A stretch of DNA of 64,000 bases, from assembly GCA_035510735.1 (NCBI GenBank), contig DATKGN010000004.1, positions 177,039 to 241,038 of the forward strand, written 5' to 3'. Made by a program: the position numbers and the translations under genes. Each line of letters starts with the position of its first letter. Positions within the stretch are counted from its first letter, which is position 1. Source of the DNA: Patescibacteria group bacterium. Its GTDB lineage: Bacteria; Patescibacteriota; Microgenomatia; UBA10105; UBA927. The notes beneath the pieces were generated by a model. That model did not search any database. It was given only the letters and a program-made list of their open reading frames with translations, and was not told where the DNA came from. Below are positions 1,293 to 5,302 of this stretch, in pieces.

Positions 1293-1859
1293 ATGGATAA
1301 ACTTTCTGACATGAATACAAAATCCGATTCACTCGTGTTTGTCGTGCAAAAGCATGCGGCGACGAGACTGCATTACGATTTCCGGCTTCAGATCGGTGAG
1401 ATGATGCCATCGTGGGCGGTGCCCAAGGGGCCGACTTTAGATTCGACCGTCAAGCGGCTCGCGATGGAAACAGGTGAGCATGATATGGAATATCGGCATT
1501 TCGAGGGCGTGATTCCTGAAGGATCATACGGCGCGGGCGCAGTTATGATCTGGGATGAGGGGACTTACGTTCCTGAAATTGAAACTGCTCTAGGTGTGCG
1601 GCAGCAGGTGAAAGACCCGGCTGAGGGACAACAGGTCATGAAAGAGGGATTGGCAAAAGGGGAGATAAAGTTTTTCATGAGGGGCAAGAAACTCAAAGGC
1701 TCATTTGCCCTCGTCAAAACCCACGGATTCGGACCGAAAAATTCCTGGCTCCTCATCAAACACAAAGATAAATACGTGGTTGTAGGCTACGACGCCAAAG
1801 ATAGTGATATGTCCGTCGTGTCAAAGCGGATGATAGAGGAAATTGCCGGTGGAAAATAA
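1293..1859 (+). CDS. DNA ligase D 3'-phosphoesterase (LigD-PE) domain protein, standalone
   Basis: Motif VVQKHAATRLHYDFRLQ...SWAVPKGPTLD matches the LigD N-terminal phosphoesterase signature (HYDFRLE...SWAVPKGPS). Its size (188 aa) equals an isolated PE domain. Confidence 0.7.
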   Translation: MDKLSDMNTKSDSLVFVVQKHAATRLHYDFRLQIGEMMPSWAVPKGPTLDSTVKRLAMETGEHDMEYRHFEGVIPEGSYGAGAVMIWDEGTYVPEIETALGVRQQVKDPAEGQQVMKEGLAKGEIKFFMRGKKLKGSFALVKTHGFGPKNSWLLIKHKDKYVVVGYDAKDSDMSVVSKRMIEEIAGGK

Positions 1860-1861
1860 CA

Positions 1862-2503
1862 TCACCTCATGAGATCGGCAAATACCACGAGGCGCTTCGT
1901 ATAGGTTTGCTTAGTCTGGTCCCACGCGCCTTCGCAGGTGATGAGGTTGAGGTGCGTCCCATCCTGGCTCGCGAAAATCTTTGATGTATCAACAGATTGG
2001 TCATACGTTTTACTATCCTTCACGATAAATGCGCCGATGTTTCCGAATGCATCTTCAACGCCTATCGCAGCGCCGGGTTTGAGGGATTTGAGCTGCGCAA
2101 ATACGCCGTCTTCCCCGTTTTTCCCATCAACGTGGCCCGCGATAACCGCAGTGCCTGTTTGTCCCGGGCGGGCTCCGAGTTTGTACCATCCGACATCCGT
2201 TATACTATCGGGAACCTGCATGGATCCGTCCTCTGTTACACCCATCGGAAGAATTGTTGCGTTCGTGTGGAGAAGGGGAATCATTAACCGAACTGGGACT
2301 CCGTGAAACGGGGAAATAGACGGGACGGAATCAGGAATCGGAGCCAGAGACGGAGTCGGTGTAGGTGCCTGCGCGTGAACCTCTTTACTTATCCCCAAAT
2401 ATTCCGGTTTTGTATATGCGATTCCTAACAGAAAGAATAAAATCGCAGTAATGCCGAATGAACAGATCAGTGCACTTAGGAGTTTCGTAGGTTTTTTTAC
2501 CGT
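1862..2503 (-). CDS. sortase family transpeptidase (start codon unresolved)
   Basis: TAVIAGH and LITC (catalytic Cys) motifs are present. The reading frame is open upstream to 2503 and encodes a TM anchor (LLSALICSFGITAILFFLLGIAYT), but the first canonical start (TTG) is at 2398, downstream of the TM. Confidence 0.7.
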   Translation of the reverse strand, partial: TVKKPTKLLSALICSFGITAILFFLLGIAYTKPEYLGISKEVHAQAPTPTPSLAPIPDSVPSISPFHGVPVRLMIPLLHTNATILPMGVTEDGSMQVPDSITDVGWYKLGARPGQTGTAVIAGHVDGKNGEDGVFAQLKSLKPGAAIGVEDAFGNIGAFIVKDSKTYDQSVDTSKIFASQDGTHLNLITCEGAWDQTKQTYTKRLVVFADLMR

Positions 2504-3702
2504 TTAAATGTTACGAGCCGTTTGATTTGGTGGGTTAGGAAAAACAAGGCGGACACAACAAGACCAAGCGAGAGTATCGGGAGCCATGGGAACGTTGATT
2601 TGGGTGCAAATCCCGTGTCGGGCATGCCGGGGGAATTTCCCGCAACAACGGCGGCGCTATATTGGCCGATCGCACAATTATCCGTTGCGGCCACATGGAT
2701 CCAGATGGGTTGGTTGGCCGGGAGATCATTAAGGTTGGTCGAAAACCCAGTCACTTTTGTGTTGTAGTCCCATTTTCCATCCGCGAGTCCGTATTCAACG
2801 ACGAATGTATCGATCCCTTCATACGGGCCCCAGTTCACTGAAACACTTGTCGGGCTTAACCGCTTGGTGTCAATTATTATTGGTACGGTTTTGATATCCG
2901 TTGCTGTACACACGGAGTCACCCTCAACGGATCCTGATGATTGGTTGGAATCGGACTCGGGCGAAGACGCGGAAGCTGGTATATTGCACGTTGATCCTGT
3001 AATGGAATTTCCGTCCAAGGTCACTTCGGCCGTATGTGCAAACGCTCGACCATCGAGGCTGGCGCCGGTTGCCAAGGTAACACTGGTATCAGCAATAATG
3101 GTACCGACAAGCGAACTTCCGGCATCCAAGGATGCAGTACTTGGAACATACCACCATACGTTACAGGCATTGCCGCCGCCGGAAAACACGACATTTGCGG
3201 TTGACCCTGTGGTTGTAAGTGAACTTGCGGCTTTAAAAATCCAGACGTCCGTTGGGCCGCCGTTTAATGTGAGTGTCCCGGTCAACAAAAATGCGTCCGA
3301 ACAATACACACCGGGAACAAGATTTTTACCAGCCAGATCCGTTATGACAGCGCCGTAGTCGGTGTCACAACCTTGCGCAGCAAGCGCACTATACGCAGTT
3401 CCTCTGTCCGTTTGGGCGGAATCAGCTTGGGTGTCCGCGTCATGTATGGTGCCGCCGAGAGTGACAGAACCAAAGCCGGTGTAGTTAGGGGGCGTAGTGC
3501 CGGGGCTGATACCGACGTCACCGCTTATGGTTGTTGTTCCCGTATTCGTAACCGCTGAACCGGCAATGACAGAATAACTTACAGCGCTACCGAGGGAGGG
3601 TGAAGAAGCGGCATACACCGGCGCTGCCAACCACCCCATGTGTGTCATTGCCCAGATGACTACGGGGAGTAGAGCAAACCACATCTTACCGGGCGTTTTC
3701 AT
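2497..3702 (-). CDS. secreted DUF3494 (ice-binding-like) beta-helix surface protein with Fn3-like domain and LPXTG-like C-terminal sorting signal
   Basis: N-terminal signal peptide. The repeated beta-helix pattern (AGSAVTNTGTTTISGDVGISPGTT ... NVWWYV ... GRAFAHTAEVTLDGNSIT) is typical of DUF3494. The C-terminus has MPDTG, then a hydrophobic stretch, then a basic tail (HQIKRLVTFKR). Confidence 0.65.
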   Translation of the reverse strand: MKTPGKMWFALLPVVIWAMTHMGWLAAPVYAASSPSLGSAVSYSVIAGSAVTNTGTTTISGDVGISPGTTPPNYTGFGSVTLGGTIHDADTQADSAQTDRGTAYSALAAQGCDTDYGAVITDLAGKNLVPGVYCSDAFLLTGTLTLNGGPTDVWIFKAASSLTTTGSTANVVFSGGGNACNVWWYVPSTASLDAGSSLVGTIIADTSVTLATGASLDGRAFAHTAEVTLDGNSITGSTCNIPASASSPESDSNQSSGSVEGDSVCTATDIKTVPIIIDTKRLSPTSVSVNWGPYEGIDTFVVEYGLADGKWDYNTKVTGFSTNLNDLPANQPIWIHVAATDNCAIGQYSAAVVAGNSPGMPDTGFAPKSTFPWLPILSLGLVVSALFFLTHQIKRLVTFKR

Positions 3703-4096
3703 GTCTTATCTAATTTAAGCATAGCATACCGGTACATATTTTTATATTTGTTGTTGATAGTATAATCCTATAGTATATTGACAACAAGGGGAATATGTGC
3801 TATACTTCGTTTACAGGTTTGAATTTATAAATCTGTCTATACTTCGAAGATTCAAAAAAGTCTTGCCCAGTATACATCCTTCTACTCTGTTATTTTGGTC
3901 CCATTAAACGGGAGCGCAAATCGGAATAAGATGGATAACATTCGATTTGTTGATTGAATAACAAGGGAGATTAAGATACCTCAATTATTTCTATTGTATC
4001 TTTTCCTTTATTCTAGACTGTTCTTATGTAGGCAGATTTATAGGTTCAAGCCTAAAAGGTGAGAATACCCTTCAAGAGTAATTCTCTCTAACCATT

Positions 4097-5302
4097 ATGT
4101 TCAGACAATCGTACGCAAGAAATCAATCACATCACCCATTCCGTTCCGTGGGGCGGAGAAACAGTTCTCATTTTGCGCCCAGAGCACGCGACGCTCGCGT
4201 TGAACCCACCCGCTATATCAGTAAAGCGACTGCGGTGGGAGATGCGGCACCTGAGGCGTATATCGCCACCCATCAGTTTGCTGACTTTGATATTGCGCCG
4301 GAACTAAAAGCGAATATCGTTGCCCGGGGGTATACAGCGCCTACGCCCATCCAGGATCAGGTTATTCCCTACGTTTTAAACGGACGTGATGTGGTGGGGG
4401 TCGCAAATACCGGAACGGGCAAAACCGCTGCGTTTCTAGTTCCCTTAATCGATAAAATCATGAGGAACAGGCTTTCTAAAGTCCTCGTTATCGCGCCGAC
4501 CCGTGAACTTGCCGTTCAAATCGATGATGAACTCAGACTTTTTTCTCGGAATCTTCATATCCAGTCGGCGCTTGTTATCGGCGGGGCGAGTATGGGTAAT
4601 CAGATTTGGAAATTGAAACAGCACCCGAATTTTCTTATCAGTACACCGGGACGGCTCAAAGATTTCGTGGGGCAGGGATTAATCGCACTCTCCGACTATA
4701 AAACGATCGTTCTTGACGAAGTTGACCGGATGGTGGACATAGGATTCATTACGGATATCCGGTATCTTATTTCTTTATTGCCAAAAGATCGCCAATCATT
4801 GTTTTTCTCTGCGACTGTATCAGGATCAGTAAGCGGTATCATTGCATCGTTTCTCAAAGATCCGGTCACGATATCAGTTAAGGTCAGGGAAACCTTGGCA
4901 AGTGTTGATCAGGATATCATCCGCGTGAGAAGCAAAGAAGAAAAGATGAGCATGCTCCAGACAATGCTTAAAAAGCAGGAATTTTCTAAGGTGCTTATTT
5001 TCGGCCGGACCAAGTGGAATGTCGAGAAACTTGCACGGAATCTTGCACAGAACGGATTTCTAGTCGGATCCATTCACGGAAATAAATCACAGGGCCAGCG
5101 CATGCGGGTCCTCGCCGATTTTAAACAAAACCGGCTCCAGATTCTTGTGGCTACCGACGTTGCATCCCGTGGGCTTGATATCAATGATGTTTCCCACGTC
5201 ATCAATTTTGACGAACCGCAGTCCTATGACGATTATGTGCACCGCATCGGGCGGACCGGCCGGGCGAATAAAACCGGCACCGCACTGACCTTCGTTGGGT
5301 AA
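4097..5302 (+). CDS. DEAD-box ATP-dependent RNA helicase (DEVD variant)
   Basis: Q-motif, TGTGKT (I), PTRELA (Ia), TPGRL (Ib), DEVD (II), SAT (III), HRIGRTGRA (VI). Arg-rich N-terminal tail. Confidence 0.85.
   Translation: MFRQSYARNQSHHPFRSVGRRNSSHFAPRARDARVEPTRYISKATAVGDAAPEAYIATHQFADFDIAPELKANIVARGYTAPTPIQDQVIPYVLNGRDVVGVANTGTGKTAAFLVPLIDKIMRNRLSKVLVIAPTRELAVQIDDELRLFSRNLHIQSALVIGGASMGNQIWKLKQHPNFLISTPGRLKDFVGQGLIALSDYKTIVLDEVDRMVDIGFITDIRYLISLLPKDRQSLFFSATVSGSVSGIIASFLKDPVTISVKVRETLASVDQDIIRVRSKEEKMSMLQTMLKKQEFSKVLIFGRTKWNVEKLARNLAQNGFLVGSIHGNKSQGQRMRVLADFKQNRLQILVATDVASRGLDINDVSHVINFDEPQSYDDYVHRIGRTGRANKTGTALTFVG

Follow-up and report, generated by a model that had tools for sequence, protein, structure and literature searches.

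How is a sortase made when its reading frame holds no ATG, GTG, or TTG codon until the membrane anchor has already been encoded? This question is raised by two neighboring genes on the minus strand of the 64-kb stretch of DNA analyzed here (referred to below as the window), where a gene for a surface protein is followed almost immediately by the reading frame of a sortase. A previous, sequence-only reading of the locus had offered three ways out: a noncanonical start, coupling of termination to reinitiation, or a sequencing error in a homopolymer. On the basis of comparison with orthologous loci, we consider it reasonably probable that ribosomes terminating on the surface protein (substrate) gene reinitiate at a near-cognate ACG codon (2488 to 2486), which would yield little sortase per substrate.

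The surface protein and its sorting signal

The substrate gene (3702 to 2497, minus strand; TAA stop at 2499 to 2497) encodes a secreted surface protein of 401 amino acids (aa), for which a signal peptide, a DUF3494 domain, an Fn3-like domain, and a variant sorting signal had been proposed. The first two elements were readily recovered: in a profile search, the protein matched PF11999 (Ice_binding/DUF3494) full-length, with 164.6 bits against a gathering score of 28.7, and an AlphaFold2 model with 32 homologues as input (mean pLDDT, 81.7) contains, in this order, an N-terminal signal helix (aa 4 to 23), a β-solenoid with a flanking helix (the DUF3494 part, aa ~43 to 235), a disordered, Ser-rich linker (aa 240 to 264), a seven-strand β-sandwich (aa 275 to 354), after which the sorting signal follows, and a C-terminal helix. 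In a Foldseek search, the modeled solenoid matched structures 6eio and 7bwy with an E value of 1e-16 and a TMt of 0.86 to 0.94. The Fn3-like domain, on the other hand, stands by its fold (model aa 275 to 354 matched, e.g., 3d1m_C with a TMt of 0.80 and a root mean square deviation of 2.1 Å in Foldseek) but not by its profile, the score for Pfam fn3 (PF00041) being 14.8 bits against a gathering score of 25 (E = 0.033).

With the DUF3494 ice-binding proteins of known structure (PDB 6eio, 7bwy, 3wp9, and 4nu2), the substrate thus shares the β-solenoid with flanking helix (target TM-score, 0.8 to 0.94; identity, 27 to 39%). Unlike them, however, it scores far below the cutoff of the NCBIfam ice-binding equivalog NF045625 (68.9 versus 400 bits) and is fused to an Fn3-like domain as well as a signal for a sortase. 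The match does not imply that this protein binds ice, and a function as a surface adhesin or wall protein is more likely.

The C terminus has the proposed layout of a sorting signal: the pentapeptide MPDTG (2625 to 2611, minus strand) is followed by six residues, a 20-residue hydrophobic stretch (2592 to 2533), and the basic tail HQIKRLVTFKR (2532 to 2500), the last two together covering 2592 to 2500. MPDTG is a variant and does not match the strict LPXTG pentapeptide; the corresponding motifs in the orthologues are MPNTG, LPNAG, LPDAG, LPDTG, LPNTG, or LPNSG. All other hallmarks, i.e., the hydrophobic segment, the positively charged tail, and the N-terminal signal helix, are present, and both the sorting signal and the tail are conserved among the orthologues. 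No other protein encoded in the 64 kb carries a sorting signal of this type. Upstream of the substrate gene lies a promoter-like site (TTGTCA-16-TACTAT; 3784 to 3757, minus strand), a consensus match only, which is the sole such site on that strand within positions 1700 to 4100; between the substrate and sortase genes, neither a promoter-like nor a terminator-like site was found.

A sortase frame that lacks a canonical start before its membrane anchor

The sortase gene as we propose it (2488 to 1862, minus strand) comprises 208 codons plus a TGA stop (1864 to 1862). Its product matches the sortase profile PF04203 over positions 2 to 124 of 125, with 76.2 bits against a gathering score of 26.6, and holds the expected catalytic residues (between 2140 and 1880), namely, His119 in AGHVDG (2140 to 2123), Cys185 in the TLxTC-type motif LITC (1945 to 1934), and Arg199 in KRLVVF (1897 to 1880), all three of which are invariant in alignments of 18 and of 7 sequences. 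Among six sortase models, that of class F (NCBIfam NF033748) scored highest (runner-up, 31 bits), and class F is also the name given by NCBI to the relatives of this sortase from the candidate phyla radiation (CPR); since the score of 129.2 bits stays below the class F cutoff of 166, we refer to the enzyme as class-F-like and not as a certified member of that class. With class F sortases, of which the housekeeping sortase F of Cutibacterium acnes is a studied example, it shares the membrane anchor at the N terminus and the triad of His, Cys, and Arg. Unlike them, it appears to be dedicated to a single, adjacent substrate, with a predicted specificity for [LM]P[DN][TA]G as opposed to LPXTG. Presumably, going by what is known of the family, cleavage of this motif by the sortase leads to attachment of the DUF3494-Fn3 protein to the wall.

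The anomaly lies at the N terminus. The sortase frame opens at 2503, and not four nucleotides after the substrate stop, as had been described, but 4 nt upstream of it, so that frame and stop overlap. From there to the first canonical start, a TTG at 2398 to 2396, the frame reads T V K K P T K, then the residues of the membrane anchor, LLSALICSFGITAILFFLLGIAY (codons 3 to 25 of the proposed gene; 2482 to 2414, minus strand), and finally T K P E Y. The observation that a transmembrane (TM) helix is encoded in this frame ahead of any ATG, GTG, or TTG was therefore accurate: the anchor, which is preceded by Lys2 (the peptide after Lys2 being LLSALICSFGITAILFFLLGIAYTK), lies upstream of every canonical start, and the TTG, at codon 31, follows the TM helix. 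Public gene callers instead choose an ATG at 2284 to 2282, resulting in a truncated product of 140 aa (P0002) whose initial Met is not conserved in the orthologues.

Between the substrate stop and the ACG codon (2488 to 2486, minus strand), the proposed initiation codon, lies a spacer of 8 nt (AAAAACCT; 2496 to 2489), which would remain untranslated and which holds most of a run of seven A's (A7; 2498 to 2492), likewise reported before. That earlier reading had considered only CTG, ATT, and ATC to be available as starts and had overlooked the ACG, the one conserved candidate. By a rough estimate, the chance of 35 sense codons without a canonical start is (58/61)^35, i.e., about 0.17; the absence of such a codon is thus unremarkable by itself, and its significance rests on the comparative data.

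An assembly error at the junction could be excluded, since the independent assemblies are identical: contigs from SRR8676592, SRR8693976, and JGI 3300048768 agree base for base here, and replicate assemblies of three orthologues are likewise concordant. Among the 58 genes of the window, neither other startless genes nor signs of genome-wide recoding were found; only in the sortase gene is the first canonical start preceded by a stretch that looks coding. There are no tRNA genes in the 64-kb window. At the junction itself, RNAalifold predicted no conserved RNA structure (0 pairs) and an Rfam scan returned nothing relevant.

Start codons in the orthologous loci

For comparison, we took the syntenic Ice_binding-sortase loci of the closest relatives, which belong to a group of ultra-small CPR bacteria that have not been cultured, the closest named one being a Candidatus Gottesmanbacteria MAG. 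In 7 of 7 lineages in which the called sortase starts within or after the TM helix (the window, L004, L005, L007, L008/9, L010/11, and L141; protein identity, 48 to 79%), an ACG followed by AAA or AGA occupies the same aligned codon, in the local contexts CCT ACG AAA (four lineages), CAT ACG AAA, CGT ACG AGA, and GCT ACG AAA. Precisely at the ACG-equivalent codon, two sister lineages carry an ATG (TAA CCT ATG CGG in L138-140 and TAA CTTT ATG AAG in L142), and for a third, P0007, whose start codon is presumably canonical, the start Met is placed, without gaps, on the ACG codon in the protein alignment; the codon of P0123, which like P0007 comes from JGI 3300075153, is presumed to be ACG. From the ACG/ATG codon on, the N termini align without a gap. 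No canonical or single-mismatch codon other than ACG recurs at the same place in each of the seven lineages. The suggestion of a noncanonical start is hence supported for ACG but not for CTG, ATT, or ATC, none of which is positionally conserved.

The spacer between stop and ACG, with lengths of 8, 5, 5, 4, 4, 4, and 4 nt in the seven lineages, bears on all explanations that look upstream, i.e., an assembly error in A7, a GTA start within the GTAA at the substrate stop, or a -1 frameshift fusing both proteins. The GTA (2500 to 2498) does overlap the TAA in frame in the window, L004, and L007, A AAA AAC has the form of a classical slippery heptamer, and a fusion would fit the topology. However, a 1-nt spacer indel between L007 and L008 (GTAAATCCT versus GTAATCCT) shifts GTA, together with all sequence before it, out of frame in L008/9, and the GTA is missing altogether in L005, L010, and L141. 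The heptamer lies past the stop and lacks conservation: the A run, which differs by 3 nt in the nearest orthologue (A4 in L004), is absent elsewhere, and a frameshift would have to do without a conserved RNA structure. With the independent assemblies agreeing on A7, these spacer indels exclude a GTA start, a frameshift fusion, and a role for A7, including the homopolymer error suggested previously; as a group, we regard the upstream explanations as exceedingly improbable. Judging from the alignment, the sequence ahead of ACG is not translated.

Downstream of the ACG, the picture is the opposite. Between the window and L004, codons 2 to 31 show 15 synonymous and 5 nonsynonymous differences (pS, 0.69; pN, 0.07; dN/dS, about 0.04), and in every pair compared pS exceeds pN by a wide margin, with dN/dS values for the anchor segment of about 0.04 to 0.5. 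By this measure, the codons that follow the ACG are translated and under strong purifying selection. The comparison thus reveals a conserved near-cognate codon at the position of an orthologous AUG, with coding constraint beginning there.

Since the startless segment is under purifying selection, decay was excluded as an explanation, although ATG-to-ACG is a classical knockout mutation and the sortases of this clade might have become decaying pseudogenes after losing their start codon. One ACG lineage, L141, indeed has a 1-nt deletion in a downstream T run, which is either an assembly error or real decay, and the sorting motifs in ACG lineages are noncanonical (MPxTG and LPxAG), compared to LPxTG in ATG lineages. 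Nevertheless, the sortase frames of six ACG lineages have stayed intact while their synonymous sites diverged to saturation, no change is seen at the catalytic His, Cys, or Arg, the dN/dS values of the anchor segment are low, and the substrate sorting signal and tail have been conserved as well. The comparative data speak strongly against both this very improbable scenario and the upstream explanations.

Against a third alternative, the same data speak only moderately. The sortases might be N-terminally shortened proteins, translated from various downstream codons in or after the TM helix (GTG, TTG, or ATG or else CTG, ATT, or ATC), with the conservation of ACG being coincidental. Every lineage has some canonical codon 8 to 31 codons past the ACG, public gene callers choose these codons, and ACG is the commonest Thr codon in the sortases compared (41 of 105). 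On the other hand, their positions are not conserved (codons 8, 10, 14, 16, 18, 24, and 31, depending on the lineage), the window and L007 proteins, if started there, would lose the membrane anchor entirely or for the most part, purifying selection acts on the segment ahead of these codons, and the gapless alignment begins at the ACG/ATG codon. The idea that orthologues might normally lack the TM helix and start at the TTG did not hold either: the orthologues retain the helix and have CTT, CTC, or CTA in place of TTG 2398. We grant these downstream starts a low, albeit real, probability.

How much weight the ACG codon itself can bear was estimated from its third base. Synonymous sites are saturated across six orthologues, and in only 2 of 29 invariant 4-fold-degenerate columns do all six have the same third base; the ACG is one of these two. 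Given that Thr is most often encoded by ACG in these sortases and that the lineages are only partly independent, this argument is suggestive rather than decisive (roughly, p = 0.004 to 0.07).

In a neighbor-joining (NJ) tree, whose deep nodes are weakly supported, the ACG lineages form two groups (support of 90% and 100%), one of which has the ATG-bearing L138 as its sister (70%); at least two switches between ATG and ACG at the codon in question are implied by this topology. Of ~100 further sortase loci from the CPR, almost all begin with an ordinary start codon upstream of the TM helix, and metagenome and genome scans added no members to the ACG clade that the protein search had not already yielded. 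Taken together with the single case among 58 window genes, the ordinary starts elsewhere in the CPR mark the missing start codon as a gene- and clade-specific feature and not as a recoding of the genome. In other CPR lineages, independent ATT and startless sortases are present.

Proposed initiation at the junction

If the sortase is initiated at ACG, the question becomes how a ribosome would get there. At gene starts in the window, no Shine-Dalgarno signal is apparent (median anti-Shine-Dalgarno pairing of -1.5 kcal/mol, versus -2.2 kcal/mol at random positions), and no compensating, stronger Shine-Dalgarno-like sequence was found in the ACG lineages. With starts that lack a Shine-Dalgarno advantage, de novo recruitment of ribosomes to such a weak codon seems unlikely. 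What all ten lineages do share is a tight junction, with a stop-to-start distance of 1 to 8 nt (8 nt in the window); among 51 nonredundant CPR Ice_binding-sortase loci, junctions are likewise tight, often with 4-nt TTGA overlaps. For codirectional genes, a start that lies -8 to +10 nt from the preceding stop has been taken to predict termination-reinitiation (PMC10666635), and the substrate-sortase pair falls within that range. Among the options raised at the outset, termination-reinitiation is therefore the one that gained support from both the junction distances and the lack of Shine-Dalgarno use.

We therefore favor, as stated above, a two-gene operon that pairs one substrate with a sortase dedicated to it and in which ribosomes that finish the substrate frame would stay on the mRNA and restart at the ACG 8 nt past the TAA, probably with initiator tRNA. 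The predicted product, MKLLSALICSFG..., would be a membrane-anchored, class-F-like sortase with an N-in/C-out topology. As ACG is a very poor start and the genome does without Shine-Dalgarno use, synthesis of the sortase is expected to be low relative to that of the substrate; its output may amount to a constant, small share of that of the substrate, so that a catalytic amount of enzyme would be supplied per abundant surface protein.

Translational coupling has been described for co-oriented genes whose stop and start lie close together, as they do here (Huber et al. 2019, PMC6728339; PMC10666635). In the described pairs, however, translation restarts at AUG, GUG, or UUG and subunits of stoichiometric complexes are enriched, whereas the pair in the window has ACG and consists of an enzyme and its substrate, for which a strongly unequal ratio is expected.

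In Escherichia coli, a gene with an ACG start gives rise to detectable protein, with an N-terminal Met according to mass spectrometry, while some N-terminal Thr was seen as well; non-near-cognate codons reach about 0.1 to 1% of the AUG level there, a level that we also take for ACG (bioRxiv 10.1101/063800). In the T7 gene 0.3, changing AUG to ACG severely lowers translation (PMC5499595), and in bacteria ATG-to-ACG serves routinely as a start knockout. The yield from ACG might thus not suffice, unless start discrimination is relaxed by coupling or by a mode of initiation specific to the CPR. ACG is neither among the annotated starts of curated bacterial genomes nor offered by open reading frame tools that use table 11, and in the searchable literature, with its limited coverage, we found no report of a natural bacterial ACG start, which is absence of evidence only.

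Two other ways of using the ACG, both of which we regard as quite unlikely, would leave the junction looking the same: a restart without initiator tRNA, in which an elongator tRNA would provide an N-terminal Thr, or conversion of ACG into AUG by C-to-U editing of the mRNA. A stop codon is found 4 to 8 nt upstream in all ACG lineages, and the N-terminal Thr observed in E. coli is in line with a restart of this kind. In plant organelles, ACG-to-AUG editing creates start codons; we know of no enzyme or precedent for C-to-U mRNA editing at bacterial start codons. While sequence data do not separate either from near-cognate initiation, near-cognate pairing with the initiator tRNA offers the simplest reason for the strict conservation of a codon with a single mismatch. 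Should one of them be true, it would represent a mode of expression not established in bacteria, and the ATT and startless CPR sortases would suggest that it has recurred behind substrate genes.

Near-cognate initiation at the ACG would have its closest known counterparts in E. coli infC and pcnB, which start with AUU, and in the alternatives listed in NCBI table 11 (CTG, ATT, ATC, and ATA). As in those cases, a conserved single-mismatch codon takes the place of AUG, and strongly reduced initiation is to be expected. The ACG differs from them in having its mismatch in the middle position, and no autoregulatory logic like that of IF3 and infC is evident for the sortase. Noncanonical starts are known, as is translational coupling; what would set the sortase apart is a naturally conserved ACG in the role of start codon.

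If ACG is indeed a maintained start, the natural repertoire of bacterial start codons gains a codon that annotation pipelines have never considered. By cutting off the anchor (calls of 140 to 196 aa, compared to 208 aa), these pipelines would cause the sortase to be mispredicted as soluble or cytoplasmic. An ACG kept by selection in a functional gene would also advise caution with ATG-to-ACG null mutations in tightly coupled genes. The junction, at ~100 nt, provides a compact and clonable natural test of how far termination-reinitiation can relax start discrimination without a Shine-Dalgarno sequence. Finally, the arrangement suggests a simple evolutionary route to a fixed and very low enzyme-to-substrate ratio inside a single operon.

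Gene starts and annotation in the window

Across all 57 scored gene starts of the window, upstream pairing with the anti-Shine-Dalgarno sequence was no better than at random positions (median, -1.5 versus -2.2 kcal/mol), and this genome appears to be Shine-Dalgarno independent. The start codons in the window comprise 44 ATG, 12 TTG, and 2 GTG codons. For the substrate gene itself (3702..2497, minus strand), one public call (P0232, 377 amino acids) begins 24 codons downstream and thereby loses the signal peptide (window 3630-3702, minus strand); therefore, like the neighboring sortase gene, the substrate gene is also mis-started in some annotations. Labeling of a different kind was seen in the records of several CPR-like contigs carrying these loci (L012 [CAYLQG010000006.1], L017, and L022), which bear the title "uncultured Gammaproteobacteria bacterium." Since both their relatives and their gene content indicate Patescibacteria, these taxonomic labels are probably wrong.

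Start positions of other CPR sortases

At another CPR sortase, likewise located downstream of an Ice_binding substrate, an ATT (L119:204-300 and L121:1022-1120) occupies the exact position of the ATG in a relative (L028:2432-2530), with codons TGT ATT CGC CAC AAA TAT in the former two loci versus TGT ATG CGC CGC AAA TAT in the latter. Here, a near-cognate codon has independently taken the place of the start. In two saccharibacterial loci (L021:604-900 and L086:2255-2550), the sortase frame opens directly after the tail of the upstream substrate (...RNRKFTSNR*, CGT TAA G CTA GAA...) and 98 of its codons, TM included, pass without ATG, GTG, or TTG; no conserved near-cognate codon was found in this startless stretch. 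A Saccharimonadales locus (L018:2432-2500) does show a TTGA stop/start overlap, but its TTG does not share the reading frame of the sortase ORF, whose earliest in-frame canonical start falls within the TM region. Either an indel or an assembly error could account for this arrangement, or the locus may be a further startless case.

Irregular loci and the sorting motif

One sortase of the ACG lineages (L141:517-600) has a T-run that is short by 1 nucleotide (GCCGTTTTTTATTTT), splitting the conserved N-terminus over two frames; because the locus is represented by a single 1.6-kb Logan contig, the deletion may be either a homopolymer error or real decay. On another Logan contig (2,816 nucleotides), a single ORF (P0293, 528 amino acids) joins an Ice_binding-Fn3 substrate to a sortase catalytic domain. 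The fusion point lies just past the LPNAG motif of the substrate, and both TM segments are absent; the ORF resembles the product of either a deletion or a chimeric assembly.

Sorting motifs were compared among the window (2611-2625), eight related loci (L004, L005, L007, L008, L010, L138, L141, and L142), and two substrate proteins (P0236 and P0243). LP[DN]TG was found in the lineages with a canonical start, i.e., L138 and L142 (both ATG) and P0243, the partner of sortase P0007; MP[DN]TG or LP[DN]AG was found in the ACG lineages, and LPNSG in P0236, the partner of a sortase with a truncated gene call (P0123). This association between start codon and motif may be a phylogenetic coincidence, or the enzyme level may co-vary with the substrate motif.
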